DNA from: an uncultured Anaerolineae bacterium
GTDB lineage: Bacteria; Chloroflexota; Anaerolineae; VGOG01
Reading direction: 5' to 3'
DNA: 64,000 nucleotides
Assembly (NCBI GenBank): GCA_964390805.1
Contig: CAYMKL010000010.1
Coordinates: forward strand, 12,158 to 76,157
The notes below the pieces were generated by a model. It was not told the origin of the DNA. It worked only from the letters and a program-made list of their open reading frames with translations, and ran no database searches. The position numbers were made by a program, and so were the translations under genes. Shown here one piece after another: positions 661-33,454 of this stretch; position 1 is the stretch's first letter, and every line of letters starts with the position of its first letter.

Positions 661-1017
661 ATGGATTCGACTGCGAAGCCAGACGCCTATCAACCGAAAG
701 AAGGGGAATTTGCCAAGCGGGCTGAAGAGCAGCGCTCCGATGATGCCACCCTGCCCAATGCTGAAGTTGAGAGACGGGCCAAAGTTTTCAGCGCGTTGGG
801 CAACGAAACGCGGTTGAAGATCCTGAGATTGCTTTTGAGCGGAGACCTGTGTGTGTCTGGCATTGTGGAGAGTGTTGCTGGGGCTGCCTCGACGGTGGCC
901 CACCACTTGCGCATGTTGGAGGATGCTGGGCTTGTCACTAGTCGTCGCGATGGCAGATCTACCTACTACACTATCCAGAAAGAAGAACTGTCCAAGTATC
1001 ACATCTTTGAGTCATGA
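661..1017 (+). CDS. ArsR/SmtB-family metalloregulatory transcription factor
   Basis: HTH_5 signature: 'LGNETRLKILRLLLSGDLCVSGIVESVAGAASTVAHHLRMLEDAGLVTSRRDGRSTYYTI'. Its stop overlaps the downstream start (ATGA at 1014-1017), indicating translational coupling. Confidence 0.85.
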   Translation: MDSTAKPDAYQPKEGEFAKRAEEQRSDDATLPNAEVERRAKVFSALGNETRLKILRLLLSGDLCVSGIVESVAGAASTVAHHLRMLEDAGLVTSRRDGRSTYYTIQKEELSKYHIFES

Positions 1018-3332
1018 AGATTAGCAGGCGTGAGTTCATCAAACTGGCTGGCGTCAGCGCGGCCGCCGCAGCCCTGTACGAGTCCAGCGGCTCCATCCTA
1101 CAAGCCTTGAGCTTGATCAACCAGGCGACCCCTCCCGGCCAGGAGGTGTGGGCACCCAGCGTGTGCCAACTGTGTCCAGCTCAGTGTGGCCTGCGGGTAC
1201 GAGTAGTGAGGGGGCTGGCGGTCAAGATCGAGGGCAACCCCCGCCATCCTCTCAACCAGGGCAAGCCCTGCCCGCGAGCCCAGGCCGCCCTCCAGGTTCT
1301 CTACGACCCCGACCGGATACAGCATCCCCTCCGTCGCGTGGGAGAGCGGGGAGAGGACCGCTGGGAATCTATCTCCTGGGAGGAAGCCATCGCCCAGGTG
1401 GCAGACCACCTGAGAGGGCTGCACCACCAGGGGCAGGCCCACACGCTCCTTTTCCTGCACGACGCGCTCTCCGGCCAGATGCGCGAACTGATCGAGCGTT
1501 TCTGCCGGGCTTATGGCTCGCCCAATGTCGTCGCCGCCGACGGACTGGACGCCGAGCGTCTGACCCACCTCCTCACGCAAGGTTGGTTTGACCTGGCCGC
1601 GCACGATTGGGAGGAGACGGCTTACGTCCTGTTCTTCGGCGGCTCCTACTTGGAGGACTGGCAGCCCCAGGTGCACATGCTGCGAGCCTACTCGTACATG
1701 CGGCGCGGCCGGCCTGACCGGCGGACTCGCCTGGTACAAATAGGCTCTCGTTTCTCCGTTTCCGCGGCCAAGTCGGACGAGTGGGTGCCGCTCCTGCCTG
1801 GTCGCCAGGGGGCGCTGGCGCTGGGGATGGCCCACGTCATCATCCGCGAGCGGCTTTACGACCACGCCTTCGTGGCCGACCACACCGAGGGGTTCGACGA
1901 CTTTGCCACTCTGGTGCTGAAGCAGTACACGCCGGACGCGGTGACAGCGCTGAGCGGGGTGCCTGCCGATACGATCAAGCGGCTGGCGCGGGAGTTTGCT
2001 GGCAGCCGCCCTGCTGTAGCCGTCGCCGGACGAGGACTGGGGGAGGGTATCAATGCTCTCTTCAATCACGTCACCATCCACGCTCTCAACGCCCTGGTGG
2101 GCAGCGTGGATGCACCGGGCGGCATCCTGAGACCTCGACAGCCTCCTTTCACCCCCTGGCAGTCCGACCTGCCCGAAGAGTCCTCTCAGCCCAGACTGGA
2201 CGGGGCCGGCACTGCACCTTATCCGCTGGCCGCCAACGCCCTTCACACTCTGCCGGAGCGCATCGTGCTTGGCGCACCTTATGCCCCCCAGGCCCTGTTC
2301 TTCCACGAGACCAACCCTCTCTTTGAGGGGGCCGGGGCGAGCCGCTGGCGCGCTGCTTTCGAGCACATTCCCTTTGTAGTCAGCTTCTCTCCCTTCATGG
2401 ACGAGAGCACGCGCTACGCCGACCTGGTGCTGCCCAACCACACCTTTCTGGAGCGATGGGTAGACGGGACGCCGCCGGGCGGGCTGGGTGTGCCCACCAT
2501 TGGAGTAGGGCAGCCTGCCGTCGAGCCACTCTACGACACCCGAAACACCGGCGACGTGCTACTAGCCCTGGCTCGCGCCTTTGACGACGGCTTGGCCGAT
2601 CTCTTCCCCTGGTCGGATTACGAGCAATTGCTCCGCTTCCGAACACAGAGGCTCCTCGAGGCGGGAGGGTCCATCCAGGCTGACACCTTCGACCAGTTCT
2701 GGGGTGAGCTTGTGAAGCGAGGGGTCTGGGTAGGCTCCCCCTACACCTTCGGCCAATGGGAGGAAGTGCTGACTACACCTTCAGGTCGCTTCCAGTTCCG
2801 CCTGGCTCAGTTGGAAGAGGCATTGAGCAGGATCGGGGAAGAAAACGTCGGCTTTCTGGGACTGGAAGGCGAAGGAGATGTACTGTCGTTGCCCCACTAC
2901 GAGCCACCGCGCTATGCGGGCGATGTGGCAGAATATCCCCTCCACCTGATTCCCTACCAGGTGATCGCCGACGCTGGCTGTCGGGCTCCCAACGCCCCGC
3001 TCCTGTGGGAGATGTACGGCCTGCACCTCAAGGAGATGTGGCAGAGCTGGGTGGAGATCCACCCGGAGACGGCTCACCGGCTGGGCATTTATGATGGAGA
3101 CCAGGTGTGGATCGAATCGCCCCAGGGCCGCATCCGGCTCAAGGCCCGTCTCTACGAGGGGGCGATGCCTGACGCTGTCAACATCCCCCTGGGGGGAGGG
3201 CACACTGCCGGCGGACGCTGGGCCAGTCAGGTGGGAGGGGGGAACGTGGCCGAAATCGTCGTTCCGCAGACCGACCCGCTGGCCGGCACCGCTGCCTGGT
3301 GCAGCACGCGCGTCCGCGTTTACAAGGCTTGA
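1014..3332 (+). CDS. Tat-exported molybdopterin (bis-MGD) oxidoreductase catalytic subunit, PsrA/PhsA/TtrA-like CISM family
   Basis: Twin-arginine signal 'SRREFIKLAGVSAAAAALY'. N-terminal FS0 4Fe-4S motif 'CQLCPAQCGL...C'. Length 772 aa, and followed by FeS and NrfD subunit genes. Confidence 0.85.
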   Translation: MKISRREFIKLAGVSAAAAALYESSGSILQALSLINQATPPGQEVWAPSVCQLCPAQCGLRVRVVRGLAVKIEGNPRHPLNQGKPCPRAQAALQVLYDPDRIQHPLRRVGERGEDRWESISWEEAIAQVADHLRGLHHQGQAHTLLFLHDALSGQMRELIERFCRAYGSPNVVAADGLDAERLTHLLTQGWFDLAAHDWEETAYVLFFGGSYLEDWQPQVHMLRAYSYMRRGRPDRRTRLVQIGSRFSVSAAKSDEWVPLLPGRQGALALGMAHVIIRERLYDHAFVADHTEGFDDFATLVLKQYTPDAVTALSGVPADTIKRLAREFAGSRPAVAVAGRGLGEGINALFNHVTIHALNALVGSVDAPGGILRPRQPPFTPWQSDLPEESSQPRLDGAGTAPYPLAANALHTLPERIVLGAPYAPQALFFHETNPLFEGAGASRWRAAFEHIPFVVSFSPFMDESTRYADLVLPNHTFLERWVDGTPPGGLGVPTIGVGQPAVEPLYDTRNTGDVLLALARAFDDGLADLFPWSDYEQLLRFRTQRLLEAGGSIQADTFDQFWGELVKRGVWVGSPYTFGQWEEVLTTPSGRFQFRLAQLEEALSRIGEENVGFLGLEGEGDVLSLPHYEPPRYAGDVAEYPLHLIPYQVIADAGCRAPNAPLLWEMYGLHLKEMWQSWVEIHPETAHRLGIYDGDQVWIESPQGRIRLKARLYEGAMPDAVNIPLGGGHTAGGRWASQVGGGNVAEIVVPQTDPLAGTAAWCSTRVRVYKA

Positions 3333-3354
3333 AGGTTAGCGCAAGGAGTGAGAG

Positions 3355-4044
3355 ATGCCCCATTGGGGTATGGTGATTGATCTGGATAAATGCACCGCTT
3401 GCCAGTCCTGCTCAGCGGCCTGCCGGGCCGAGAACAGCGTTCCCTTCGCCGGGCCTGAACAGGCAGCCATGGGCCGACCGATTTTCTGGCAAGAGGTGCT
3501 TGAGCGGGAAGTGCGCGGCCACTACCCCTTCCTGGAGATGCAGTTCGTTCCTCGCCCCTGCATGCATTGCGAGAAGCCGCCGTGCGTCAAGGTCTGCCCG
3601 GTGGGCGCAACCTTTCGGACAGAGGATGGCCTGGTGGCGATGGACTACGACATCTGCGTCGGCTGCCGCATGTGCACCACTGCCTGTCCCTACGGCGTGC
3701 GCTACTTCAACTGGTACGCCCCGCAGTTCCCGGTGCCGCTGGACCGCACGCTGAACCCTGATGTACCGGTGCGTGACAAGGGAGTAGTGGAAAAGTGCAC
3801 CTTCTGTGTCCATCGGTTGCGAGCTGCGGAAGCCCAGGCGGAAGAAGAGGGGCGAGAATTGAGTGACGCTGAGGTCGTGCTCCTACCGGCCTGCAACCAG
3901 GCCTGCCCCGCCTCCGCCCGCTACTTCGGTGATCTGGAGGATCCGGAGAGTACCGTCTCACGGCTGGCTCGCAGCCGGCGTGCCTACGTACTGTTCGAGG
4001 AATTGGGCACTGAGCCCAGTGTCTACTATCTGAAGAGCGAGTAG
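3355..4044 (+). CDS. 4Fe-4S cluster electron-transfer subunit (PsrB/NrfC/DmsB-like)
   Basis: Several CxxCxxCxxxCP ferredoxin motifs: 'DKCTACQSCSAACRAEN', 'CMHCEKPPCVKVCP', 'CVGCRMCTTACPYG', 'CTFCVHR'. Confidence 0.9.
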   Translation: MPHWGMVIDLDKCTACQSCSAACRAENSVPFAGPEQAAMGRPIFWQEVLEREVRGHYPFLEMQFVPRPCMHCEKPPCVKVCPVGATFRTEDGLVAMDYDICVGCRMCTTACPYGVRYFNWYAPQFPVPLDRTLNPDVPVRDKGVVEKCTFCVHRLRAAEAQAEEEGRELSDAEVVLLPACNQACPASARYFGDLEDPESTVSRLARSRRAYVLFEELGTEPSVYYLKSE

Positions 4045-4047
4045 CGA

Positions 4048-5340
4048 ATGATGCAACAAGGTGAAGAGGCCCTACTTCTAGCTCCACTAACTCGCACGAG
4101 CCGCGGGTTCGCTGTCTTCGTGGGCCTGTTGCTGGCTGTCGTCGTCGCGGGGGGCGCGGCCTATGCCTATCAGCTTATTAACGGCCTGGGCGTGACCAGC
4201 ATGAACCGTCCTGTCTACTGGGGCGTTTACATCGTCAACTTCGTCTTCTTCATTGGCCTGGCCCACTCCGGCACCTTCATCTCCGCCATCCTGCGGCTGG
4301 TGGGAGCAGAATGGCGCAAGCCGCTGGCCCGCGCTGCCGAAGCCATCACCGTCTTCAGCATTCCTTTCGGTGCTGGCAGCATCCTGATGGATTTGGGCCG
4401 CATTGATCGCATGGTCAACATATTCGCCCGTGGGCGGTTCGAGTCCCCCCTCTTGTGGGACGTGACTTGCGTAAGTCTGTATCTGTTTTCCAGCGTTGTT
4501 TTCTTCTACCTGTCCCTTCTGCCTGACCTTGCTCGCTGCCGGGACCAGTTGACCGACGTACCTCGCTGGCAGCACCAGATGTACCGCATCCTGTCCCTGG
4601 GCTGGAAAGACCGCCCTGAGCAGTACCGTCGCCTGGAGAGGGTGCTGGGTGGGATGACAGTCTTTATGGCCATGCTCGTCGTCATCGTCCACACCGTCGT
4701 CGCCTGGGTGTTCGGCATGACGCTCCAGCCGGGCTGGCACACCGCCATCCTGGGCCCGTTCTTTCTCATAGGGGCTGTCTTCTCCGGCTCCGGTGCCGTC
4801 GTCGTGGCTATGGCGGTGTTGCGGCGCGCCTTTCACCTGGAAGAGGTGCTGACCCTCAAGCACTTCGACTACATGCGCAAACTGCTCATCAGCCTCACCC
4901 TGGTCTGGCTCTACTTCATGGTGACCGAATACCTGACCACCTTCTACGGCCAGGAAGTGGAGGAGATGCTGGTCTTCTGGCAGAAATTCACCGGCGCCTA
5001 TGCTATCCCTTTCTGGATCATGTTCGCGCTATGCTTCGCCGTGCCTCTGGCGATTTTCATGACCAAGGGAAAGCGAAGCGTCAGTTGGATGGTGGCGGCG
5101 GGATTGATCATCAACGTCGGGATGTGGCTGGAGCGGTACATCGTTATCATTCCCACCCTGACGCGGCCCCGGCTGTTGAGCGAGTTGGCGATGGGTTCCT
5201 ATACACCCTCTGTGATCGAATGGATCATCACCGCCGCCTGCTTCGCCGGCGTGTTGCTCTTTTATGCTCTGTTCACCCGTTTCTTTCCCATCATCCCCAT
5301 CTGGGAGCGATCGGAGGAAGTGGAGGCATACTTGCATTAG
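4048..5340 (+). CDS. NrfD/PsrC-family integral membrane quinol-interacting subunit
   Basis: About 8-10 predicted TM helices over 430 aa. Typical third gene of a PsrABC-type operon. Confidence 0.8.
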   Translation: MMQQGEEALLLAPLTRTSRGFAVFVGLLLAVVVAGGAAYAYQLINGLGVTSMNRPVYWGVYIVNFVFFIGLAHSGTFISAILRLVGAEWRKPLARAAEAITVFSIPFGAGSILMDLGRIDRMVNIFARGRFESPLLWDVTCVSLYLFSSVVFFYLSLLPDLARCRDQLTDVPRWQHQMYRILSLGWKDRPEQYRRLERVLGGMTVFMAMLVVIVHTVVAWVFGMTLQPGWHTAILGPFFLIGAVFSGSGAVVVAMAVLRRAFHLEEVLTLKHFDYMRKLLISLTLVWLYFMVTEYLTTFYGQEVEEMLVFWQKFTGAYAIPFWIMFALCFAVPLAIFMTKGKRSVSWMVAAGLIINVGMWLERYIVIIPTLTRPRLLSELAMGSYTPSVIEWIITAACFAGVLLFYALFTRFFPIIPIWERSEEVEAYLH

Positions 5341-5347
5341 TGGAGGG

Positions 5348-5447
5348 CAGAAACCAGGTTTTTTGGTTGATAAGATGGCTTCTCGCGTCCCAGGAGATCT
5401 CACACGGACAATCTGTTTGCTCAGACGGGGCAAAAACCTGGTTTCTC
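5348..5447. promoter_or_regulatory. 16-bp inverted repeat (CAGAAACCAGGTTTTT ... AAAAACCTGGTTTCTC) flanking a ~67-nt spacer, in the intergenic region
   Basis: The arms at 5348-5363 and 5432-5447 are reverse complements (15/16). A related pair lies at 13385-13477. Confidence 0.5.
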
Positions 5448-5469
5448 TGCCAAGACAAGGAGTGGAGCC

Positions 5470-5913
5470 ATGAAGACTGTCAAAGATCTGTTGAAAGGCA
5501 AAGGGTATGACATCTGGGCTGTGGCGCCGGATGATTCGGTGTATGACGCCCTCAAGCTGATGGCCGACAAGAATGTGGGAGCCGTGCTGGTGATGGACGC
5601 CGACCATCTGGTGGGCATCCTGTCGGAGCGGGATTACGCCAGGAGGGTCCTTTTCAAGGGAAAACTACCGGAAGAAACACCTGTCCGGGAGATCATGACC
5701 GAAAAGGTGTTGTGGGTGCGCCCTGATCAGACCGTCGAGGAGTGCATGGCGCTGATGACCAACAAGCGCGTGCGACACCTGCCCGTCTTCGAAGGCGATC
5801 AGTTGATCGGCGTGATCTCCATTGGGGACGTGGTCAAGGCCATCATCTCTGAGCAGGAGTTCATGATCGAACAGCTCGAACACTACATCACGGGGGGATA
5901 CTTCCGACCCTAA
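5470..5913 (+). CDS. CBS-pair domain protein
   Basis: Two CBS motifs: 'VGAVLVMDADHLVGILSERDY' and 'VRHLPVFEGDQLIGVISIGDV'. Confidence 0.85.
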   Translation: MKTVKDLLKGKGYDIWAVAPDDSVYDALKLMADKNVGAVLVMDADHLVGILSERDYARRVLFKGKLPEETPVREIMTEKVLWVRPDQTVEECMALMTNKRVRHLPVFEGDQLIGVISIGDVVKAIISEQEFMIEQLEHYITGGYFRP

Positions 5914-5927
5914 AGCCGAGGAAGATT

Positions 5928-6092
5928 ATGGACATTTCGTGGATTTTCACCACGCCGGGAATCGGCGGAATCATTGCTGCGACAGTGCTGCTGAGCGCGG
6001 CTGTGATATACATCGGTCTGACCCGTTGGATTCTGCAAGGCGGACGAGAAGAGGCGCCGCCGTGGGAGCAGATGGGCTGGCCATTCAAGTAG
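5928..6092 (+). CDS. small (54 aa) single-TM membrane protein; possible NfeD-like partner of the downstream SPFH protein
   Basis: ATG at 5928 after 'gaggaaga'. Translation 'MDISWIFTTPGIGGIIAATVLLSAAVIYIGLTRWILQGG...'. Absent from the ORF track because it is under 60 aa. Position directly upstream of the SPFH gene. Confidence 0.4.
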   Translation: MDISWIFTTPGIGGIIAATVLLSAAVIYIGLTRWILQGGREEAPPWEQMGWPFK

Positions 6093-6122
6093 AGCCATTT
6101 TTGAATAGTGAGGAGGCAAAAA

Positions 6123-6905
6123 ATGGACAACTTAGGGATTATAGGGGCTGCTGTGGCAGGCGCAATCGCTTTCCTAGTGCTCATCGTCTGGCCGGCAGTC
6201 AAGATCGTCCAGCAGTGGGAGAAGGGGGTCGTGCTGCGCTTTGGCCGGCTGATTGGCATCCGTGAGGCGGGGATCAACTTCATCCTACCCTGGATTGACC
6301 GCATGGTCAAAGTAGACATGCGAGTCGAGACCCTGGTCCTCGAACCTCAAGAGGTGATCACCCGCGACAATGTGACCGTGCACGTGGACGCGGTGGTCTA
6401 CTTCAAGGTGGTTGACGCCAAGAAGGCCGTCATTGAGGTCACGAACTACGTCAAGGCGACCACCCAGATCGCCTTGACCACGCTGCGGAGCGTTCTGGGT
6501 CAGTCTGAGCTGGACGAACTGCTGTCCCACCGCGACAGGATCAACGAGCGGTTGCGGGACATCATTGACGAGCATACCGAGGAGCCGTGGGGTGTGTTGG
6601 TGGTGACTGTCGAGGTCAAGGACGTGCTCCTGCCGGAGGGATTGCAGCGGGCCATGGCCCGCCAGGCCGAGGCCGAGCGGGAGAAGCGGGGCAAGATCAT
6701 CCACGCCGAGGGAGAGTTGGCCGCGGCCGAGCAACTGGTGCAGGCCGGAGACATGATCGCCAGCCAGCCGGTGAGTCTGCAACTGCGCTATCTTCAAACG
6801 TTGGTGGAGATGGCGGGCGAGCGAACCAGCACCATCATCCCTGTCCCCCTGGACATCCTCTCTTCGCTGGCCCCGATGCTGGGTGGAAAGTCCGACGAGG
6901 ACTAG
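6123..6905 (+). CDS. SPFH/band-7 (stomatin/prohibitin-like) membrane protein
   Basis: N-terminal TM helix followed by a band-7 core: 'VVLRFGRLIGIREAGINFILPWIDRMVKVDMRVETL...TRDNVTVHVDAVVYFKV'. AGGAGG RBS lies 6 nt upstream of ATG 6123. Confidence 0.85.
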   Translation: MDNLGIIGAAVAGAIAFLVLIVWPAVKIVQQWEKGVVLRFGRLIGIREAGINFILPWIDRMVKVDMRVETLVLEPQEVITRDNVTVHVDAVVYFKVVDAKKAVIEVTNYVKATTQIALTTLRSVLGQSELDELLSHRDRINERLRDIIDEHTEEPWGVLVVTVEVKDVLLPEGLQRAMARQAEAEREKRGKIIHAEGELAAAEQLVQAGDMIASQPVSLQLRYLQTLVEMAGERTSTIIPVPLDILSSLAPMLGGKSDED

Positions 6906-6932
6906 GCAGACCTTCTGCGAAGGGAGACGGGA

Positions 6933-8042
6933 ATGAAGAACTGGATATTCCATCATCGTTGGCTCCTGGCCGGAGCGCTGCTCCTGGTAGCACTACTGGC
7001 TATCGTGGGGACCATCGCCGCTCAGCCGCCCGTCCCACACGCGGTGATGGAGGGGGAGGACTGTCTGGGTTGTCACCAGGCGGGCGTGGCCGGCGCGCCC
7101 CGCCTGGCCTGGGACCACCTGGGGCGCAACAACGAGGACTGCGCGCGCTGCCACGAAATCAGTGGCGCGCCAGCCGGCGAGATCACCCATCCCGTGGTCG
7201 GTCGAGAGGACTGCTTGTCGTGCCATCGCGAGGGAGTGGGCGCCACGCCCAAGCTGACCGGCAATCACGTGGACTACACCAATGATGAGTGCGATTTGTG
7301 TCACTTTCCGTCAGCGATCGCGGTAGTAGAAGAACCTACTCCTGTGCCAGTGGAGCCTACCCCTGAGCCAGTAGAACCTACTCCGACCCCAGAGACCCCT
7401 CACATACCCACCGGCGAGAACGCCTGTGTGTCCTGCCACCAGCTCATCTTCACCGACGAGGAGCACGCCCTCTTCACCGGCCAGCCTATGGGCGACGCCG
7501 AGGCCGGCGCGATCCTCTACGCCCAGGTGTGCGCGAGCTGCCATGGCGACGACGGCTCCACTCCGGTGGGCGATGAGGATGCCGTCATTGGCGCAGAAGC
7601 TTACTGGAGCACCCATGACGATGCGGCCATCCTGCAAGACATCGGCATCGGGTCACATGGCCAGATGACTGCCTTTGCCCAGGACTACGACGGCCCGCTC
7701 TCCTGGGAGGAAATCCTGGACATAGCGGCCTTTGTGCGCTCGTGGGGACCGCTGGCTCAACCTTCGGAAGTGCCCGCTGTGGAAGGCCCTACCTACAGCG
7801 ACACCATCGGCCCGCTTCTGACCGAGCAGTGCGCACTTTGCCACGCGGCCCCTGCTACCCTGATCGTTACATCCTACGAGTCACTGATGGCCGGATCTGC
7901 TTCCGGGCCAGTGATCGTGCCCGGCGACCCTGACGGGAGCCGCATCGTTGAGGTGCTGCAAGAGGGGCACTTTGCCCAGTTGAGCGAAGCGGAGTTGGAT
8001 CTGTTGATCGAATGGATCGCCAACGGGGCGCCTGAAAAGTAG
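6933..8042 (+). CDS. heptaheme c-type cytochrome with N-terminal signal/anchor and a Pro/Thr/Glu-rich linker
   Basis: 7 CXXCH motifs (CLGCH, CARCH, CLSCH, CDLCH, CVSCH, CASCH, CALCH). N-terminal hydrophobic segment. Linker 'EPTPVPVEPTPEPVEPTPTPETP'. Confidence 0.85.
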   Translation: MKNWIFHHRWLLAGALLLVALLAIVGTIAAQPPVPHAVMEGEDCLGCHQAGVAGAPRLAWDHLGRNNEDCARCHEISGAPAGEITHPVVGREDCLSCHREGVGATPKLTGNHVDYTNDECDLCHFPSAIAVVEEPTPVPVEPTPEPVEPTPTPETPHIPTGENACVSCHQLIFTDEEHALFTGQPMGDAEAGAILYAQVCASCHGDDGSTPVGDEDAVIGAEAYWSTHDDAAILQDIGIGSHGQMTAFAQDYDGPLSWEEILDIAAFVRSWGPLAQPSEVPAVEGPTYSDTIGPLLTEQCALCHAAPATLIVTSYESLMAGSASGPVIVPGDPDGSRIVEVLQEGHFAQLSEAELDLLIEWIANGAPEK

Positions 8043-8073
8043 TATACCAGGGAAGAATGGACTTGATCATTCT

Positions 8074-10383
8074 ATGAAAGAAATCAGCCGACGAACCTTT
8101 CTTAAATTGGCCGGAGTAAGCGCTGCTGCTGCGGCCCTATATCAGTCAACTGGCTCCATCTTGGCCGCGCTGAACATTATTGACCAGGAAACCTCTCCTG
8201 GCGCAGAGAGGTGGGTGCCCAGCGTTTGTCAACTTTGCCCGGCCGAGTGTGGCCTTCGGGTACGAGTGGTGGGAGACGTGGCGGTCAAGATCAAGGGTAA
8301 CCACCAAAACCCCTGTAACCAGGGTCGAACCTGCCCGAAGGGACAGGTCGGCTTGCACCTTTTGTACAATCCCGACCGGGTGAAGACACCGCTCAAGCGG
8401 GTGGGGGAACGGGGAGAGGGCCGCTGGCAGGCCATATCTTGGGACGAAGCCATTGGCGCTGTGGGTTCCCGGCTGTTGGCTTTGCGTCTGGCCGGCACGC
8501 CGGAGCGCATGGCTTTCCTCTATGAGCGGCCGGCTGGGCTGCTAGAGGAAACCCTCACCTACTTTTGCCAGGCCATGGGCACGCCGAATGTGATGGATAT
8601 GCGCCCAGATGCGCTCAGTAAAGCCGTCCTTCTAACTCAGGGCTGGGATGCCCAACCTGGCTACAATCTGGAGCTCACGCGCCACCTTTTGAGCTTCAAC
8701 TATGCGCTCCTGGAATCGGCCCAGCCCACGGTGCGTCTGCTGGCTGCGTACAGCTTCATGCGCCGCGGACGGCCCGGCGACCGAACGTATATGGTGCAAA
8801 TCGAGCCGCGCCTGTCGGTGACGGGCGCCAAGGCCGATGAGTGGGTGCCTATCAAGCCGGGCACCGAGGGTTTGTTGGCTCTCGGTCTGGCCTGGGTGAT
8901 TGTTTTCGAGCACCTCTACGACAAAACCTTCGTTTCCCAGCACTGCCACGGATTTGAGGAGTGGAGCCAAGCCGTGCTGCAAGACTATACTCCAGAGCGA
9001 GTCTCGCAGCTCACTGGCGTCAGTGAAAGGACGATAACACGGCTGGCGCGCGAGTTCGCCGACACGTCGCCAGCCCTGGCCATAGGCGGCGACGCAGTGG
9101 GGCAGCAGACTAACGGCCTCGCCAGCCAACTAGCTATCCACTCGCTGAACGCGCTAGTCGGCTCCATAGACGTGCCGGGTGGCGTGATGATGCAGCGTCC
9201 AGTGCCCCTCACGCCCTGGCCCGATGTATTCATGGACGACGTAACGATCGAGGGGCTGGCCCGACCCCGTATTGATGGGCCTGAGCGCTATCTCCTGGCG
9301 CGCTCAGCAATCCACCACCTGCCAAAGGCGATTCTGACCGAAGATCCCTATCCGCTGGAGGCGCTGCTGCTCTATCGCGCCAACCCCATTCACGAACTAC
9401 CTGACCCGGAAGCGTGGCGGGAGGCCCTGAAACGGGTGCCGCTCATTGTCAGCTTTGATTCCTTTGTTGAAGAAACATCGGCCTACGCCGATTACATCCT
9501 TCCTGACCACACTTTCCTGGAGCGGTGGATCGCCGCGCCGCTGATGCCTTCGCTGGGCTACCCGGTGTTGGCGTTTGGGCAGCCCGTCGTGGCGCCGCTC
9601 TACGATACGCGGGCCTTCGGCGACGTGCTCATCCAGCTTGCCAATCAGGTTGGGGGGGCGCCCAAAGCGAACTTCCCCTGGAACGACCACCGCGAGTTGT
9701 TGCGCTTCCGGTTCGAAGACCTGGTGGCGGCAGGACATGGCACGATTCGAGCTGACACAATGGATGGCTTCTGGCAGGAGTTGGAGGAGCGCGGCACGTG
9801 GTTCAGCACACCTTACCACTTCGCGGGGGGAAATGGGAGGAACCCGGAGGGATGGGGGACGGTATTGGCCACGCCTTCCGGAAAGTTCGAGTTCACACCC
9901 CAGGTGTTCCAAAAGCAGCTCTCGTTGTCGCCGCCCTACTACAGAGTTCCGCGCTATGTGGGTGAGGAAGATGAGTTTCCCTTCCACCTGCAGTTCTATA
10001 CCCTGATGAACCAGGGAAGTGGGCCGGGAGCGGCAAATCTGCCCCATTTGCACGAACTCTACGGCCTACACATCAAGCAGATATGGGGAAACTGGGTGGA
10101 AATCAATCCTGAGACAGCTCACGAACTGGGTATTGAGGAATGGGATGAAGTGTGGGTCGAGTCGCTGGTCGGTAAGATCCGGCTCCCGGCGAGGCTCTAC
10201 CCGGGCATACCACCTGAGACGTTGTGTATACCCACGGGACTGGGCCACACTGCGGGCGGCCAGTGGACAAAGGGCATTGGCGTCAACCCGGAAACTCTGG
10301 TTAGTAGCAGCTACGTGGACGAGCTGAGCGGACTGGTCGCCCGGCAGGGCGTACGGGTCAAGATATACAAAGTGGAAGGATAG
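8074..10383 (+). CDS. Tat-exported molybdopterin oxidoreductase catalytic subunit (paralog of 1014..3332)
   Basis: Tat signal 'SRRTFLKLAGVSAAAAALY'. FS0 motif 'CQLCPAECGL'. Collinear similarity to the first copy along the whole length. Confidence 0.85.
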   Translation: MKEISRRTFLKLAGVSAAAAALYQSTGSILAALNIIDQETSPGAERWVPSVCQLCPAECGLRVRVVGDVAVKIKGNHQNPCNQGRTCPKGQVGLHLLYNPDRVKTPLKRVGERGEGRWQAISWDEAIGAVGSRLLALRLAGTPERMAFLYERPAGLLEETLTYFCQAMGTPNVMDMRPDALSKAVLLTQGWDAQPGYNLELTRHLLSFNYALLESAQPTVRLLAAYSFMRRGRPGDRTYMVQIEPRLSVTGAKADEWVPIKPGTEGLLALGLAWVIVFEHLYDKTFVSQHCHGFEEWSQAVLQDYTPERVSQLTGVSERTITRLAREFADTSPALAIGGDAVGQQTNGLASQLAIHSLNALVGSIDVPGGVMMQRPVPLTPWPDVFMDDVTIEGLARPRIDGPERYLLARSAIHHLPKAILTEDPYPLEALLLYRANPIHELPDPEAWREALKRVPLIVSFDSFVEETSAYADYILPDHTFLERWIAAPLMPSLGYPVLAFGQPVVAPLYDTRAFGDVLIQLANQVGGAPKANFPWNDHRELLRFRFEDLVAAGHGTIRADTMDGFWQELEERGTWFSTPYHFAGGNGRNPEGWGTVLATPSGKFEFTPQVFQKQLSLSPPYYRVPRYVGEEDEFPFHLQFYTLMNQGSGPGAANLPHLHELYGLHIKQIWGNWVEINPETAHELGIEEWDEVWVESLVGKIRLPARLYPGIPPETLCIPTGLGHTAGGQWTKGIGVNPETLVSSSYVDELSGLVARQGVRVKIYKVEG

Positions 10384-10390
10384 GTTACGT

Positions 10391-11080
10391 ATGCCGAGAT
10401 GGGGCATGGTCATTGACCTCGACAAGTGTACCGGCTGTCAGGCATGTAGCGTGGCTTGCCGGATGGAGAACAACATTCCCTTCGCTGGGCCAGAGGAAGC
10501 GGATTTGAGCCGTGTCAAATGGTGGCACAAGGTGTTGCGCTTTGTGGAAGGAGAATACCCCAATGTTCACATCACGTTCATGCCCCGGCCTTGCCAGCAC
10601 TGCGACAAACCGCCTTGCGTGAACGTCTGTCCGGTAGGAGCCACCTACAAGGACGAGGAAGGCGCCGTGCGGATGAACTATGACCGCTGTGTCGGCTGTC
10701 GCTTCTGCGCCTCAACCTGCCCGTATGGGGCGCGCCACTTCAACTGGTACGACCCAATCTACCCCGAGGAGATGCGGGCTGCCCTCAATCCAGACGTGCC
10801 CGTTCGCCCCCGCGGAGTGGTGGAGAAGTGTACCTTCTGCATTCATCGCCTGGAGAAGGCCAAGCGTAAGGCGGCTGAGGAGGGGCGTGAACTGGTGAAC
10901 GCCGAATTGGTCAACCTGCCGGCCTGCAACGAGGTCTGTCCGGCCTCCGCCCGTTATTTCGGCGATCTGGATGATCCGGAAAGCACCGTCTCACGCCTAG
11001 CCCACAGCTCGCGGGCCTTCATACTATTAGAGGAGCTGGGCACCTTTCCCAAGGTGTTTTATCTGAAAGCGGCAAGCTAA
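10391..11080 (+). CDS. 4Fe-4S electron-transfer subunit (paralog of 3355..4044)
   Basis: 'MPRWGMVIDLDKCTGCQACSVACRMEN' and three further Cys clusters. Same length as the first copy (229 aa). Confidence 0.9.
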   Translation: MPRWGMVIDLDKCTGCQACSVACRMENNIPFAGPEEADLSRVKWWHKVLRFVEGEYPNVHITFMPRPCQHCDKPPCVNVCPVGATYKDEEGAVRMNYDRCVGCRFCASTCPYGARHFNWYDPIYPEEMRAALNPDVPVRPRGVVEKCTFCIHRLEKAKRKAAEEGRELVNAELVNLPACNEVCPASARYFGDLDDPESTVSRLAHSSRAFILLEELGTFPKVFYLKAAS

Positions 11081-11101
11081 CGGAAGAGAAAGAGACGATA
11101 T

Positions 11102-12439
11102 ATGTCATTTGAGGGTTATAGCATTCAGGAAAGACGTACTCTGGCAAGACCGGTGGATGAGGACGCCATCCTGTTCGAGCCGCTCCAGCGCACTGGATGG
11201 AAGTTCTGGGCTATCGTGGCCATCCTAGTGTACGTCATCATCTTTGGGGTGTCGGCCTACTACCGCCAGCTTACCAAAGGGTTGGGCATCACCGGCCTGA
11301 ACTACCCGGTCTACTGGGGAATGTACATCATCAACACCATCTTTTTCATCGCCATCAGCTACGGTGGCACGCTCACCTCCGCCATTCTGCGAATCTTCGG
11401 TATCCGGTGGCGGACGCCGATCACCCGCGCCGCCGAGGTGATGACCGCTTGCGCCCTCTCCATCGGGGCGCTGAACATCGTCCTGGACATGGGGCGGCCC
11501 GACCGGGTGTTGAACTTGATCCTGTACGGCCGATGGCAGTCGCCCATTCTGTGGGACTTCTACGCCGTTAGCCTGTACATGGCCTGTAGCCTACTCTACC
11601 TCTACTTGCCGCTGATACCGGACATCGCCGAGTTGAAAGAGCGGTTCCCTCGCCGCCGATGGCTCTACGGTCCCCTGTCGCTGGGCTGGACAGGCACCCC
11701 ACAGCAAAAGAGGCGGCTGGACAGGATCATAGACATCATGGCCTATGCTATGGTTCCCATCGCGGTGATGGTACATACTGTTCTCTCCTACCTGTTTGCT
11801 CTGACCACACAGCCGATGTGGCACAGCACGCTCATGGGGCCCTACTTTGTCATGGGGGCCGTCTACAGCGGCATGGCTGGGTTAGTCATCGTCATGGCGC
11901 TTCTCCGGCGGTTCCTCCACCTGGAGCGCTACCTTGAGCCCAAGCACTTCAAATACATGGGACTGATGATCCTGGGTATGACGTCCGTCTGGCTCTACTT
12001 CACTTTCTCAGAGTATATCACCACCTACTACGGCCAGGACCCGTCTCACCTAGAGGTGTTCCATGCTAAGTTCTTCGGCGAGTTCGCGCCTTATTTCTGG
12101 ATTCAGGTCGTATTGTGCCTGGTGGTTCCTGTGCTGGTGTTGAGCTTCCGGCGGACACGCACCATCGCGGGCACGGTCTTTGCCAGCGTGTTGATTCTCG
12201 TTGGCATGTGGTTGGAGCGGTTCCTGATCATCGTTCCCACTCTCACCCATCCTCGCCTGCCACTTGACCTGCCCTTCACCATAGGCAAATACCAGGCCAC
12301 CAGCGCTGAGTGGGCCATCATGGCTGCCAGTGCAGCGGCCATTGCGTTACTCTACTTGATGTTCATCAAACTGTTTCCCATCGTACCCGTCTGGGAGATT
12401 CGCGAGGAGCGGGAAACCCATAAACCCGTAAATCCGTAG
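11102..12439 (+). CDS. NrfD/PsrC-family membrane subunit (paralog of 4048..5340)
   Basis: Polytopic membrane protein of 445 aa. Similar to the first copy, e.g. 'WLERFLIIVPTLTHPRL' vs 'WLERYIVIIPTLTRPRL'. Confidence 0.8.
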   Translation: MSFEGYSIQERRTLARPVDEDAILFEPLQRTGWKFWAIVAILVYVIIFGVSAYYRQLTKGLGITGLNYPVYWGMYIINTIFFIAISYGGTLTSAILRIFGIRWRTPITRAAEVMTACALSIGALNIVLDMGRPDRVLNLILYGRWQSPILWDFYAVSLYMACSLLYLYLPLIPDIAELKERFPRRRWLYGPLSLGWTGTPQQKRRLDRIIDIMAYAMVPIAVMVHTVLSYLFALTTQPMWHSTLMGPYFVMGAVYSGMAGLVIVMALLRRFLHLERYLEPKHFKYMGLMILGMTSVWLYFTFSEYITTYYGQDPSHLEVFHAKFFGEFAPYFWIQVVLCLVVPVLVLSFRRTRTIAGTVFASVLILVGMWLERFLIIVPTLTHPRLPLDLPFTIGKYQATSAEWAIMAASAAAIALLYLMFIKLFPIVPVWEIREERETHKPVNP

Positions 12440-12520
12440 GTTCGTAAATTCGGGGGCACGAATCTACGAGTTCCGAATGTACGAATCTACCAACTCACAA
12501 ATTAGAGGAGGAAAAAGCAA

Positions 12521-13303
12521 ATGGATCAACTAGTAAGTCTGCTACCAATTATCTTTCCTGTCGCGATCTTGGTGGGCCTCATCGTCGTCCCTGCCGTCAA
12601 GATCGTCTATCAGTACGAGCGCGGTGTACTGTTCCGCTTCGGTAGGTTCATAGGCCTCCGCAAGCCGGGCATCAACCTGATCTTGCCCTGGATTGACAGG
12701 CTGGTCAAGGTTGACCTGCGAACCAGAACGGTGATCCTGACACCCCAGGAGGTCATCACCCGCGACAACGTGACTGTCCACGTGGACGCGGTGGTGTACT
12801 TCAACGTCTTTGACCCAGAGCGCGCTGTCATCCAGGTTGAAGAATACGCCATGGCCACCGAGCAGTTGGCCCTGACCACTCTGCGGAGTGTGCTGGGCCA
12901 GTCCGATCTCGACGAGCTCCTGGCCCATCGTGACCGCATCAACGAGCGCCTGCGGGACATCATTGACGATCATACCGAAGATCCGTGGGGCGTGATGGTC
13001 ACGCTGGTCGAGGTGCGGGACGTGTTGTTGCCAGAAGGGATGCAGCGGGCCATGGCCCGCCAGGCTGAGGCCGAGCGAGAAAAGCGAGCCAAGATCATCC
13101 ACGCCGAGGGTGAGGAAGCGGCGGCGCAAGCCCTGGCCAATGCAGCCAGGACCATCGGTGCCGCACCGCCAGCGATACAACTGCGCTACTTGCAGACGCT
13201 GGTCGAGATGGCTGGTGAAAGAAACAGCACCATTATCCCCTTGCCGGTGGACATTGTCTCTTTTTTGGGCGAAGGGCTACGGCAGGGGAGCGACTCAAAG
13301 TAG
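12521..13303 (+). CDS. SPFH/band-7 protein (paralog of 6123..6905)
   Basis: The band-7 core is nearly identical to the first copy ('TRDNVTVHVDAVVYF', 'AMARQAEAEREKR'). Confidence 0.85.
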   Translation: MDQLVSLLPIIFPVAILVGLIVVPAVKIVYQYERGVLFRFGRFIGLRKPGINLILPWIDRLVKVDLRTRTVILTPQEVITRDNVTVHVDAVVYFNVFDPERAVIQVEEYAMATEQLALTTLRSVLGQSDLDELLAHRDRINERLRDIIDDHTEDPWGVMVTLVEVRDVLLPEGMQRAMARQAEAEREKRAKIIHAEGEEAAAQALANAARTIGAAPPAIQLRYLQTLVEMAGERNSTIIPLPVDIVSFLGEGLRQGSDSK

Positions 13304-13384
13304 CCATTGATCATCAACCTGGGAGTATGGCTGGAGCGTTCCCGCCATGACGCAGCCACGCCTGGGTAAGACATCTGGAAATCA

Positions 13385-13477
13385 GGGTTTTCGCTAGCGG
13401 GTAGATTCTGGTTAGCGAGCAGACTGGAGCTATCACATCTCCTCGCTTTTGGACGCAAAAACCTGGTTTCCAGTTGA
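13385..13477. promoter_or_regulatory. second copy of the CTGGAAAYCAGGTTTT ... AAAAACCTGGTTTCCAG inverted-repeat element
   Basis: The arms at 13385-13401 and 13461-13477 are reverse complements with 2 mismatches. The arm sequence is the same as at 5348-5447. Confidence 0.45.
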
Positions 13478-13501
13478 ATCAGATTACGGAAGGAACCAAG
13501 A

Positions 13502-14593
13502 ATGAGATATTGGATATCTCGTCACTATTGGCTAGTAGTCATTGTGCTGATCCTGGCGGCTCTGCTGCTTACTGTAGGGCCAACCTCGGCTCAGCCCCCC
13601 GTACCCCACGGTGTAATAGAGGGGGATGACTGCCTCAGTTGCCACGAGGCGGGTGTAGCTGATGCGCTTCGCCTGTCGCGAGACCACATGGGGCGCAACA
13701 ACGAAGACTGCGCCATCTGCCACGAACCCAGCGGTGCATTCGCAGACGACACACCCCACCCGATAGCCGGTCGAGAGGATTGTCTCTCGTGCCATAGCGT
13801 GGGGATAGGCACTATATTGGCCAGGAGTCACCTGGAACGCACGAACGACCAGTGCGAACTATGCCACCTGCCCTCGCCTGCTGTAGAGGAGCCTACTCCG
13901 ACCCCGGCCACAGCGAAACCTACTCCCACCCCAACCCCCCACGCCACTCCAGAGGCAGGCCCTCCCCCTTCTGGGGCAGAGACCTGCGCGGCGTGTCATC
14001 AGCGTACGGCCGTTGATGAAGGACATGCTACGTTCACCAGCCAGCCCCTCGGTGACCAAGAGGCCGGTGCAACGCTCTTCACTCAGCAGTGCGCGACCTG
14101 CCACGGCGAGGATGGCGCCACGCCGGTGGGCGAAGATGGGAACATCATCAACTCAGAGGAGTACTTGAGCGCTCACGACGACGCTGACATTCTGAAGGAC
14201 ATCGGCATCAACCCTCACGGCGCGACGCCTGCCTTTGTCGAGGACTACGGCGGTCCCCTCTCGTGGGAGGAGGTGTTGGATCTGGCAGCCTTCGTTCGCT
14301 TGTGGGGACCGATGGCTGCGCCACACGCAATGCCTGGGCCAACCTATGCCAGTACCATTGGTTCACTGCTGACCGAGCGGTGTGGAGCCTGTCATGGATC
14401 TGCTGGCGGTCTGAGTGTGGCGGACTATGATGCACTGATGGCTGGGGGCTCTTCAGGCCCTGTGGTGGTGCCCGGCGATCCGGAGGGAAGCAGCCTCGTT
14501 GAGTTGCTGCGGGGGGGACACTTTGCTCAGTTGAGCGAGGCGGAACTAGACCTGTTGATCGAATGGATCGCCAATGGAGCACCAGGGGAGTAA
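13502..14593 (+). CDS. heptaheme c-type cytochrome (paralog of 6933..8042)
   Basis: 7 CXXCH motifs. Pro/Thr-rich linker 'EEPTPTPATAKPTPTPTPHATPEAGPPP'. The C-terminal 'LDLLIEWIANGAP' is conserved with the first copy. Confidence 0.85.
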   Translation: MRYWISRHYWLVVIVLILAALLLTVGPTSAQPPVPHGVIEGDDCLSCHEAGVADALRLSRDHMGRNNEDCAICHEPSGAFADDTPHPIAGREDCLSCHSVGIGTILARSHLERTNDQCELCHLPSPAVEEPTPTPATAKPTPTPTPHATPEAGPPPSGAETCAACHQRTAVDEGHATFTSQPLGDQEAGATLFTQQCATCHGEDGATPVGEDGNIINSEEYLSAHDDADILKDIGINPHGATPAFVEDYGGPLSWEEVLDLAAFVRLWGPMAAPHAMPGPTYASTIGSLLTERCGACHGSAGGLSVADYDALMAGGSSGPVVVPGDPEGSSLVELLRGGHFAQLSEAELDLLIEWIANGAPGE

Positions 14594-14599
14594 GGCAAG

Positions 14600-16362
14600 A
14601 TGAGGCGTGTGTTTAGTACCAAGAACTGGTCTTCAGAGGCCAAACCCATCCTGCGATGGGCTGGCCTTATGCTGCTGGCGGCCGGTCTGTTAGTGGCCTG
14701 TGCCCAGCAGTCAACAGAGACTACCACTGTGAAGTCTGGCCAACAGCGCCGCCCGTTACTATTCTAATCGAGGCCACGCCCGCACCACCGGTCGAGCCGG
14801 TGGCAATGACGTGGCGCGAGTCGGTGGATGCCTTGTTGGTCGAAGCGGACATCGGCGCGGAGTCGCAAGGGTGTGTCAACTGCCACCTGGCCACGACGCC
14901 TAAGATGGTGGAACAATGGGTCTCGTCGGAGCACGCAGCAGAGAGTGTTGATTGCCTGGAGTGCCACACAGCCCAGGAGGGGGACTGGGACTACACGGAA
15001 CACCATGGCAACGTGGCTGTCGCCACCAATCCAACGGCCGGTGACTGCGCCAACTGCCACGAGCAGGAGTACGAGGAATTCAGCCGGAGCAAGCACTCAG
15101 CCCTGGCGATGATCTTCTTCTCCGCCTCGTTCGACCGAAACGTCCTCGAGCCGACCATCGCCACCAAGCACGGCTGTCAGGAGTGCCACAACATTGGCCA
15201 CTTCTGGCCCGACCAAAGCGTGGGCGAGTGTGACGCCTGCCACCCCAAACACTCCTTTGACGTGGCCGTGGCCCGCAATCCCTACACTTGCGGCGAGTGT
15301 CACATCGGCCCAGATCACCCGCACATCGAAATCTGGGAAGAGTCCAAACACGGCAACGTGTTCATGAGCAACCCCGAAAACTGGGAGGAGCTGGGCTACG
15401 AGGCCGTGAAGGGGGAGCCGCCACCCTTCGACGCGCCGACCTGCACCACTTGTCACATGGACGCCACGGTTAACCTGCCGGCCACGCACGATGTCGGCTC
15501 TCGAATGGCCTGGGAGACCCAGTCGCCGTGGACGATCCGCGCTACCGAAGCCTGGGGAGGCGGGCTGACCTGGGAGGAGAAGCGGGCGAACATGACCGCG
15601 ACCTGTCTCCAATGCCACGCCCAGCCTTTTGTTGACCGCTACTTGCTGGAAGGCGATATGGCCGCGCTCCAGTACAGCGAGATCTTCCGCGAGGGCAAGC
15701 GCTGGTTGAACGAGATGAACGAGGCTGGCATCATCTTGACGGCCGGTTTCGAGGGCCTGGCTCCCTTTGGCACAGCCGGCTACGACGAAGTTCCCGAGGA
15801 GATCTCATATCACATCTGGCACCACGAAGGCCGACGCTACCGCCACGGCGCGCTGATGATGGCAGCCGACTACACCCAGTGGCACGGCATCTGGGACTTG
15901 CAGCATGATCTGATAGAGATTATCCGCTACGGGGCCGAGCACGGCCTGCCCGAAGCTGAGGCTTGGATGGCGTCGGACGATCCGGCCAAGTTCTGGCTCT
16001 ATCCGTTCTACGATGTGCCCGGTTCGGTCTGGGGCATTGACACCATCGCCTACCGCATGGGAGACGATTGGACGACCAAGATCTGGATGAACCGCAACGG
16101 CCAGGAAGGTCTCGACGCCTACTGGGAAGCCGCCTATGCCAACGTCCAGGCGGCATACGAGGCGGGCCTTTTCTCCGATGAGCAGTGGTCGCTTTATCGG
16201 CAGCTCTTCGAGAACCGCGAAGTCGAGAACGGCAACACCTATCCGCTGCCGGATCTCTTCCAGGTGCACCTGGACGGGAAGGCGGCCGATGGCGCAGCGG
16301 CCAGTGAATACGGGGCGGGGTTGCAATTGCCCGGTGCAGATGGCTGGGACTACTCTCCGTGA
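14600..16362 (+). CDS. octaheme c-type cytochrome (HAO/OTR-like lipoprotein) with an apparent single-base frameshift separating the lipoprotein signal (14600..14767) from the mature domain (frame of 14656..16362)
   Basis: Frame 2 reads 'MRRVFSTKNWSSEAKPILRWAGLMLLAAGLLVACAQQ...' (lipobox LVAC) and stops at 14767. Frame 1 continues 'PPVTILIEATPAPPVEPV...' with 8 CXXCH motifs. One extra C in the run near 14748-14756 would fuse the two. Confidence 0.6.
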
Positions 16363-16422
16363 GATGGGTGGTCCTCGAGCGAACGTGATGCGGGATTGAC
16401 GGTGATCAATGAAAGACCTGCC

Positions 16423-24934: not shown

Positions 24935-24937
24935 GGT

Positions 24938-25906: not shown

Positions 25907-25922
25907 TTGGAGGAGATGCAAC

Positions 25923-33185: not shown

Positions 33186-33223
33186 AGATCTGCTGAAGGT
33201 AAAAAGCAAAGAAAACAGAGGAG

Positions 33224-33451: not shown

Positions 33452-33454
33452 GCC

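Follow-up and report, generated by a model that had tools for sequence, protein, structure and literature searches.

We analysed a stretch of 64,000 nucleotides from an uncultured Anaerolineae bacterium (contig CAYMKL010000010.1, positions 12,158 to 76,157; hereafter the window), at the start of which lies a respiratory locus of two collinear gene modules (window 1014-14593, plus strand; Table 1). According to the open reading frame (ORF) map and domain scans, each module encodes an exported subunit of the molybdenum bis-pyranopterin guanine dinucleotide (Mo-bisPGD) family (A), an Fe-S subunit (B), an NrfD-family membrane subunit (C), an SPFH/band-7 protein and a heptahaem c-type cytochrome (Y). 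An earlier note on this DNA had described a tandem pair of such five-gene modules, and both the positions and the gene content are borne out by the ORF map and Pfam. The five listed genes stand, but the note missed two further genes, one for a CBS-pair protein and one for a 54-amino acid (54-aa) protein with a single transmembrane (TM) segment. These are found in copy 1 only, so that the contents of the modules differ and are not strictly five genes each.

The amino acid identity between the two copies is 48% for A, 66% for B, 45% for C, 72% for SPFH and 58% for Y, and at the DNA level they are alike in patches only (approximately 68-75%). The same tandem pair is also present in three other contigs (L002, L034 and L088). 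The duplication is therefore old, as the earlier note had maintained, and not an artefact of assembly. The window is of metagenomic origin. The closest metagenome-assembled genome (MAG) is that of an uncultured Anaerolineae bacterium at 90% identity (L002), and an A1 of identical sequence was found on a Logan metagenome contig. All 11 genes compared between the window and L002 are under purifying selection, with dN/dS ranging from 0.04 to 0.23 (A1 0.12, A2 0.12, 54-aa gene 0.21). Scans for promoters and terminators returned no higher counts than shuffled controls. The only suggestive elements, a promoter-like site at 572-600 (10/12) and a terminator-like hairpin at 481-501, lie upstream of arsR.

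Table 1. Genes of the two modules and the overlapping regulator gene, with positions in the window (TMH, transmembrane helices; Tat, twin-arginine translocation).
Gene	Position	Strand	Product and features
arsR	661-1017	+	ArsR/SmtB-family regulator; Pfam HTH_5, NCBIfam HTH_metalloreg
A1	1014-3332	+	772 aa; Tat-exported Mo-bisPGD-family subunit; TAT_signal, Molybdop_Fe4S4, Molybdopterin, Molydop_binding
B1	3355-4044	+	229 aa; Fe-S subunit, 16 Cys; Pfam 4Fe-4S dicluster domains
C1	4048-5340	+	430 aa, ~10 TMH; Pfam NrfD; ActC-like
CBS-pair gene	5470-5913	+	147 aa; Pfam CBS 1e-28
small single-TM gene	5928-6092	+	54 aa; TPGIGGI motif
SPFH1	6108/6123-6905	+	likely start ATG at 6123; Pfam Band_7 1.4e-37; stomatin/HflK-like
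Y1	6933-8042	+	369 aa; heptahaem c-type cytochrome
A2	8074-10383	+	769 aa; Tat-exported Mo-bisPGD-family paralog; same Pfam domain set as A1
B2	10391-11080	+	229 aa; four-cluster Fe-S subunit, 16 Cys
C2	11102-12439	+	445 aa; ActC-like NrfD-family membrane subunit
SPFH2	12521-13303	+	260 aa; SPFH/band-7
Y2	13502-14593	+	363 aa; paralogous heptahaem cytochrome

Both A subunits have a twin-arginine signal, the four Cys of the FS0 cluster and, following these, a CP(R/K) motif. All three Pfam domains of the Mo-bisPGD fold score above their gathering thresholds in A1 and in A2. The nearest solved relatives are ArrA (1e-76) and PsrA (9e-56), with the Mo-enzyme-like domain of ActB (part of Alternative Complex III, ACIII) at 7e-16. 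The best NCBIfam match is to the PhsA model (A1 334, A2 353, cut-off 694), and scores for QrcB (A1 329, A2 285, cut-off 440), ArrA (A1 284, A2 252, cut-off 1600) and TtrA (120/101, cut-off 1750) are likewise below the respective cut-offs. What is missing from both proteins is the ligand of the metal. No Cys or selenocysteine was found at the position of ArrA Cys193 and PsrA Cys173 in three independent alignments (HMMER to ArrA and to PsrA, MAFFT with 105 homologues), nor did HMMER or MAFFT place a Cys within five residues on either side of it. The position aligns to Ala, Gly or Asp in A1 and to Leu, Ala or Arg in A2. The surrounding loop reads NVVAA--DGLDAERL in A1, with Gly at the Cys column, and NVMDM----RPDALSK in A2, the HSS-C loop being 3-4 residues shorter in both. 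Moreover, the RGRY motif of ArrA is replaced by HDAL in A1 and by YERP in A2, and HSS is deleted. In ArrA, the RGRY and HSS-C motifs are presumably those that bind the substrate.

A comparison across the family places these changes in context. The canonical clade (GH-SSIC-(A/E)DG) shows no variation at the ArrA-like residues R165, H189, S190, C193 and Y210; the 23 sequences of the A1 clade have, in the same columns, Ala, a variable residue, a deletion, Gly and Leu. The ligand column of the A2 clade (16 sequences) holds Arg in eight sequences, His in five, Tyr in two and Cys in one, an entropy of 1.65 bits. A sister clade of A1 retains a Cys within a GSQC motif, further clades have Ser, Asn, Arg or a Ser-rich loop, and over the whole family the column takes G, A, L, V, N, T, D, E, R, H and Y. 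Judging from these residues, the canonical catalytic site is gone in A1 and A2, and the fold, FS0 and possibly a pterin pocket are still under selection. The earlier note had rightly reported Tat export and an intact FS0 motif in both A subunits. It had also called them cofactor-competent, a description that the missing Mo ligand, the shortened loop and the replaced or variable ArrA substrate-binding residues contradict. The loss of FS0 together with cofactor-binding residues, which the note had set against its own proposal, is seen in part: the Mo ligand and its loop are lost, but FS0 and most conserved residues are kept.

The partners of A point away from polysulfide reductase and towards ACIII. 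B has no signal peptide of its own. The best match of B1 in the PDB is the Fe-S domain of ActB (6f0k_B residues 797-1022, E 4e-59), compared with 2e-39 for PsrB and 1e-37 for ArrB; the score of B with the QrcC model is 255 (cut-off 400). The PDB matches of C1 are ActC and ActF chains only. Four ActC chains (6f0k_C, 6lod_C, 6btm_C and 8k9e_C) head the list at 6e-65 to 5e-55, all matching over the full length and the first of them at 6e-65, and the ActF chains match merely as weak paralogs. PsrC (2vpw_C) gave no match to C1 in the PDB search at E<=0.01, and the QrcD model scores 39/54 (cut-off 570). The hydropathy profile of C suggests about ten TMH. The PsrB- and PsrC-like character given to B and C in the earlier note thus yields to a closer relationship with the ActB Fe-S domain and ActC. 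Functional residues of the quinol site and proton half-channels of R. marinus ActC were taken from PMC5928083. Of these 30 residues, 24 are identical in C1 (at 36% overall identity) and 18 in C2 (at 32%). The cytoplasmic half-channel is identical in C1 at 14/14 positions, as are D169, E394 and R395. S245, which in ACIII interacts with ActD and ActF, is not conserved, and this fits the absence of both proteins here.

Y1 and Y2 each contain the seven CXXCH motifs and the Pro/Thr-rich linker reported previously, and Pfam recognises multihaem and class I cytochrome domains plus PSCyt1. The layout of Y1 is an N-terminal TM or signal helix, an MtrA/NrfB-like tetrahaem domain, the linker, one haem, a class I domain and a FoxE/PSCyt1-like monohaem domain. 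When a profile of six Y homologues was compared with the PDB, the tetrahaem region matched MtrA (6r2q_A, 1e-5), the class I domain matched CcoP (1e-6), cytochrome c4 (1e-4) and cytochrome c6 (3e-3), and the C-terminal haem domain matched FoxE (5mab, 3e-5). The pentahaem region reached ActA at an E of 0.09 only. By analogy, the arrangement of 5 + 1 + 1 haems may be likened to that of ActA plus ActE.

A scan of species-representative genomes recovered 80 loci, each in a MAG and together spanning many phyla of Bacteria and Archaea. Loci were annotated with the proteins of the window and with haem counts, and a neighbouring cytochrome was scored where it had four or more haems. Such a cytochrome is adjacent to none of the 22 loci with a canonical GH-(S/G)SIC motif and to 40 of the 46 loci without a Cys at the ligand site (Ser forms included). 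Canonical loci are plain A-B-C, often with a TorD-like chaperone gene following. Many Cys-less loci have the order pentahaem / A / B / C / four-haem protein, an arrangement in agreement with the 'ACIII-like' clusters, ActB being split into ActB1 and ActB2, that were reported from iron oxidisers (PMC4643136) and from MBNT15 (PMC9386147). The association is not exclusive, as pentahaem proteins also neighbour some forms in which a Cys lies near the site.

The earlier note had proposed a search for the same synteny in other genomes, and the order A-B-C-(small protein)-SPFH-heptahaem indeed recurs in about 25 MAG and metagenome contigs. These fall into two types, A-B-C-small-SPFH-Y (type 1) and A-B-C-SPFH-Y (type 2), both of which recur in other MAGs and metagenomes, alone as well as in tandem pairs, at 60-90% identity. 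Single modules of type 1 are found in L083, L091, L092, L098 and L104, and of type 2 in L095 and L097. Two contigs that end inside a module are consistent with type 2: L084 carries A2-B2-C2 and ends before SPFH/Y, and L106 carries C2-SPFH2-Y2. Among metagenome loci reached from the Y side, SPFH is located just upstream of Y in 14 of the 18 that are informative. A second Chloroflexi clade (L048, L050 and L060), which includes a Litorilinea MAG, has an A only 42% identical, with Asn at the ligand site, and the order A-B-C-TorD-small-SPFH-decahaem. The cassette of small protein, SPFH and cytochrome is therefore an old and recurrent accessory.

No TorD-like gene is present in the window, L002, L034 or L083, and a look through the remainder of the 64-kb window for Mo-cofactor or TorD genes found none. 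In many relatives the gene after that for NrfD encodes a fusion of a TorD/DmsD-like chaperone with a 2x[4Fe-4S] ferredoxin domain (L050 6938-7957; equivalents in L048, L060, L010, L016, L012, L017 and others), including some relatives whose A has no Cys ligand. As to the history of the ligand, the identities of A place A1 nearer to the Cys-type sister clade, those of Y pair copies 1 and 2, and C2 is nearest to the sister clade. The branching orders so obtained conflict, with either a single loss of the Cys or two separate losses conceivable for the lineages of A1 and A2. A separate loss within the sister clade is clear (P0033/L087, in which an SPFH gene is upstream of A). In Nitrospiria, the A genes of L009 (4090-6519) and L011 (1079-3508) encode GHSSI-x-SDG, intact except for Leu in place of the ligand Cys, and lie beside a 7-haem cytochrome, which looks like a very recent loss. 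A large GHSSIC clade of A-B-C loci spans NC10, Chloroflexota, Acidimicrobiia, Thermoproteota and Thermoplasmata (L006, L012-L015, L017, L019, L022, L033, L038, L045 and others). One of its members is annotated as ArxA, and the clade may comprise undescribed oxyanion reductases or oxidases.

The SPFH proteins combine a Pfam Band_7 domain with one N-terminal hydrophobic helix and score below the NCBIfam equivalog cut-offs for HflK/HflC. Their position between C and Y is conserved across orthologous modules. The 54-aa gene is restricted to type-1 modules, where it lies directly upstream of SPFH, and is also present in L089, L091, L092, L098, L100, L104 and L105. No small TM gene precedes SPFH2, and the same is true of the type-2 modules in L095, L097 and L106. 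Both the presence of the CBS gene and its place vary between modules: it occurs in the window, in L002 and in L095 (there between SPFH2 and Y2) and is absent from L034 and L083. Among the papers in the library searched, none joins SPFH proteins with multihaem cytochromes or molybdopterin enzymes. The arsR gene overlaps A1 by 4 nt (ATGA), in keeping with the translational coupling described in the earlier note. The metal(loid) or chalcogen substrate at which this coupling was taken to hint is weakly indicated, since ArsR has LCVSG in place of the As(III)-binding CVC motif and its gene, although present in L002 and L107/L108, is absent from the orthologous modules L034, L083, L091 and L092.

Among the closest systems described to date, ACIII offers several parallels: an ActC-type ten-TMH quinone subunit with conserved quinone-site and proton-path residues, a B closest to the ActB Fe-S domain, a subunit derived from a Mo enzyme but without a Mo ligand and, by analogy, a haem wire made of a multihaem part and a class I monohaem domain. 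The differences are considerable. ActD and ActF are missing, the membrane proteins of the modules being C, the 54-aa protein, SPFH and the anchor of Y. A single fused heptahaem Y stands in place of the pentahaem ActA and monohaem ActE, the quinone-proximal [3Fe-4S] cluster of ACIII is not predicted, and SPFH, small TM and CBS genes are embedded in the operon. Moreover, A is much closer to ArrA and PsrA than to the Mo-like domain of ActB. In classical ACIII that domain is fused to the Fe-S domain, whereas A is separate here, and the ACIII analogy with unfused A and B drawn in the earlier note holds good. An unfused A with an FS0 motif is also what the ActB1 of iron oxidisers provides (PMC4643136). 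In the structure of ACIII a second Fe-S wire ends near the protein surface (PMC5928083).

QrcABCD, which in sulfate reducers acts as menaquinone reductase, likewise unites a multihaem cytochrome, a Tat-bearing Mo-enzyme-like subunit, a four-cluster Fe-S subunit and a cofactor-less ten-TMH NrfD subunit, and in NCBIfam the models for QrcB and QrcC rank near the top for A and B. However, all scores lie under the equivalog cut-offs, the cytochrome gene comes last here and first in Qrc, and both cytochrome type and phylum differ. QrcB is devoid of any redox cofactor (PMC13059093); the A subunits of the modules, in contrast, have an intact FS0. Non-catalytic Mo-enzyme-like subunits in combination with a ten-TMH NrfD protein and cytochromes are precedented in both Qrc and ACIII (PMC6303296). 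With PsrABC, PhsABC and ArrAB(C) the modules share the fold and domains of A, FS0, a Tat signal with presumed co-export of B and the A-B-C core. They differ from these in lacking the Mo-ligand Cys and substrate-site residues in A, in an ActC-like C of about ten TMH, in place of the 8-TMH PsrC type, and in the presence of Y and SPFH. The uncharacterised Cys-type enzymes with GHSSIC belong to the same A, B and C families, at approximately 48% identity and with 83-90% of conserved columns in common, but they keep R165, H189, S190, C193 and Y210, have a TorD-like chaperone and lack neighbouring cytochromes. Lastly, the NrfCD/Cbc-type quinol oxidoreductase modules that have been put forward for iron reducers (Melioribacter, MBNT15; PMC9386147) also wire a quinone module to multihaem cytochromes, for electron transfer in the periplasm or to the outside of the cell, though with no Mo-enzyme-like subunit and with a Tat signal on the Fe-S protein itself. 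The window has a module of this type at 24287-27476. The statement of the earlier note that no classical system is matched therefore remains true of Psr, Ttr and Arr; the combination is less unprecedented than it had supposed, given the split ActB1/ActB2 clusters and Qrc, which had not been considered.

Taken together, we judge the modules to be probably two paralogous quinone:cytochrome oxidoreductases of an ACIII/Qrc-like kind, which feed an island rich in cytochromes and have SPFH for an accessory scaffold. Each copy would form a small membrane complex at the outer side of the cytoplasmic membrane. C would bind menaquinone or menaquinol near the outer face, with a conserved proton path to the cytoplasm, and the four [4Fe-4S] clusters predicted in B would wire this site to the seven haems of Y. 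Y in turn would pass electrons to the multihaem cytochromes encoded downstream, or take electrons from them, so that the function may be either ACIII-like (quinol oxidising) or Qrc-like (quinone reducing). This exchange most likely serves extracellular or periplasmic electron transfer. A would derive from an Arr/Psr-like molybdoenzyme, and as the Mo-coordinating Cys and substrate-binding loop have been lost, it is probably no longer a reductase of oxyanions or chalcogens. It may have been kept as the Tat carrier of the signal-less B, by a hitch-hiker export for which Dms and Psr set the precedent, and also to scaffold the complex and to hold FS0 at the end of a second Fe-S wire. By analogy with SPFH proteins elsewhere, SPFH, together with the 54-aa protein in type 1, may act as a scaffold or quality-control factor. 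The CBS protein and ArsR would be variable regulatory additions. The paralogs would represent two kinds of module that are stable and inherited separately, with a presumed specialisation for direction, partner or condition.

Several observations weigh against this interpretation. B1 and B2 keep four Cys in every cluster motif, unlike ActB, in which a Thr aligns to the second Cys of motif 3 of B1; with all 16 Cys kept, four [4Fe-4S] clusters are predicted in B rather than a proximal [3Fe-4S]. The profile search gave no significant link of Y to ActA, ActE or QrcA, and ActE was not found at all. The Cys-bearing sister clade of A1 (L004, L085 and L086) also has the layout A-B-C-Y, and the association with a cytochrome does not by itself mean a dead enzyme. 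FS0 and the CP(R/K) conduit residue are intact in A1, A2 and both of their clades. Moreover, of 177 columns that are at least 95% conserved in Cys-type relatives, A1 keeps 90% and A2 83%, the same fraction as Cys-type enzymes of equal divergence; because these columns, FS0 and CP(R/K) are kept, A may still bind a pterin cofactor. The remodelled loop of A1 is itself conserved, with D192, G193, D195, R198 and L210 nearly invariant, which is unlike a decaying site. Column retention was rejected as a test of cofactor loss, for it tracks divergence alike in Cys-type and ligand-less forms and is uninformative. A complete pseudo-enzyme of the QrcB type was ruled out by the kept FS0 and most of the conserved columns.

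The main alternative, conceivable on these grounds if rather doubtful, is that A1 and/or A2 are still Mo/W-bisPGD enzymes in which the metal is coordinated non-canonically and which carry out an unknown periplasmic redox reaction, B branching electrons to the quinone site of C and to the haem wire of Y. The metal would have no protein ligand, or an Asp (D192 or D195 of A1), or a Ser (DALS of A2). Enzymes without a protein ligand exist (Aio-type, arsenite oxidase), as do those with an Asp (Nar-type), which counts in favour of this proposal. The retained columns and conduit, the conserved A1 loop, the low dN/dS of A and the layout of the Cys-bearing sister clade all agree with it, and some Cys-less clades (the DSLN clade and Ser forms) keep a TorD-like chaperone. 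However, the residue at the ligand column varies widely in the A2 clade and family-wide, the HSS residues are deleted, the modules have no TorD-like gene, and the candidate replacement ligands themselves vary (N/E in the A1 clade, S/G/R/T in the A2 clade). The Asp at +2, moreover, has a D/E counterpart in Cys-type enzymes and ArrA alike, and is hence ancestral and not a newly recruited ligand. A bolder combination is unlikely, namely that A binds Mo/W-bisPGD without the canonical ligand as a new catalytic class wired to quinone and haem, and that SPFH and the 54-aa protein form a dedicated cage or scaffold for the respiratory complex. We regard as very improbable the reading of the earlier note, that of a classical PsrABC/PhsABC/ArrABC-type reductase of polysulfide, thiosulfate, arsenate or selenate with a dedicated cytochrome. 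ArrA and PsrA are the nearest structures to A, PhsA is the best NCBIfam model, arsR is coupled to A1 and a rhodanese gene lies at 27591-28724, but the Mo-ligand Cys and the RGRY and HSS-C motifs of ArrA are absent, the scores are far under the PhsA, ArrA and TtrA cut-offs, C is ActC-like with about ten TMH and ArsR lacks CVC. An identity as arsenate or thiosulfate reductase was rejected on the residue states and NCBIfam cut-offs. Least credible of all, and hardly to be entertained, is that one or both copies are decaying, non-functional duplicates with SPFH and CBS as chance neighbours. In its favour are the loss of the catalytic Cys and a divergence of A that outpaces those of B and SPFH; against this, all ORFs are intact, dN/dS is low throughout, both module types recur in other MAGs and metagenomes, and SPFH is repeatedly found upstream of Y, as well as in the distant clade of L048, L050 and L060.

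For two quinone:cytochrome oxidoreductases of the kind we favour, both the parts and their logic have precedents in ACIII, in Qrc and in the ACIII-like clusters where ActB1 and ActB2 are split. New features are the minimal composition, which does without ActD and ActF, and a cytochrome in which seven haems are fused; an A of Arr/Psr type in which nothing but the ligand loop has been lost; two paralogous modules kept as a stable pair; and genes for SPFH, a small protein and a CBS protein placed among the others. On the current view, ACIII and Qrc arose from molybdoenzymes of the Psr/Arr type, the catalytic subunit of which turned into a scaffold devoid of cofactor. The present family shows intermediate stages side by side: Cys-type forms without cytochromes, Cys-type forms with Y, and several ligand-less lineages, both paralogs among them, in which only the Mo ligand and loop are lost and FS0 and the fold are kept. 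All stages are under purifying selection. Their coexistence makes the path from enzyme to electron-transfer scaffold testable. Uncultured Anaerolineae thereby gain a candidate entry point from quinone to cytochrome for extracellular electron transfer, and an SPFH protein emerges as a recurrent, unexplained companion of a respiratory complex. In metagenome surveys, annotation of these genes as reductases of arsenate, thiosulfate or polysulfide should be avoided; one relative already bears the label ArxA.

The modules are followed by a series of cytochrome genes. Directly after Y2 is an octahaem protein with PF13447 ('seven times multi-haem', 14656-16362), and a 15-haem lipoprotein-like cytochrome of 1067 aa is encoded at 19178-22381. 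By eye, the latter seems to have three internal repeats and an acidic, Val-Glu-rich N-terminal repeat. A third quinone module (24287-27476) consists of a Tat-Fe-S protein, an 8-TMH NrfD protein and a 19-haem cytochrome, with no Mo-enzyme-like subunit. The rhodanese mentioned above is a tandem-rhodanese protein, and a 10-haem protein is encoded at 29534-30622. Similar cytochromes flank related loci. Collagen-like (PF01391) multihaem cytochromes are located directly upstream of single modules in L083 (3681-4919, type 1) and L084 (8393-9694, type 2).

The rest of the window contains unrelated genes. Among them, at 32094-35232, 36994-37779 and 56585-57853, are Mrp/NUBPL-type and CbiA-ferredoxin P-loop NTPases and two NifX/NifB-type Nitro_FeMo-Co proteins; one Nitro_FeMo-Co domain protein is fused to a cation-efflux transporter. 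These genes possibly handle metal clusters, with no link to the modules shown. Within the cytochrome island, a HisKA_3 kinase (16396-17895) has two CXXCH motifs in its extracytoplasmic part and a LuxR-type regulator as partner (17900-18547). A second such kinase lies just upstream of the window start (L001 349-1794) with a partial LuxR-type partner (22-402), and the same type of two-component system flanks L083, L084, L085 and L087. The CXXCH kinases are possibly redox-sensing regulators of the cytochrome island.

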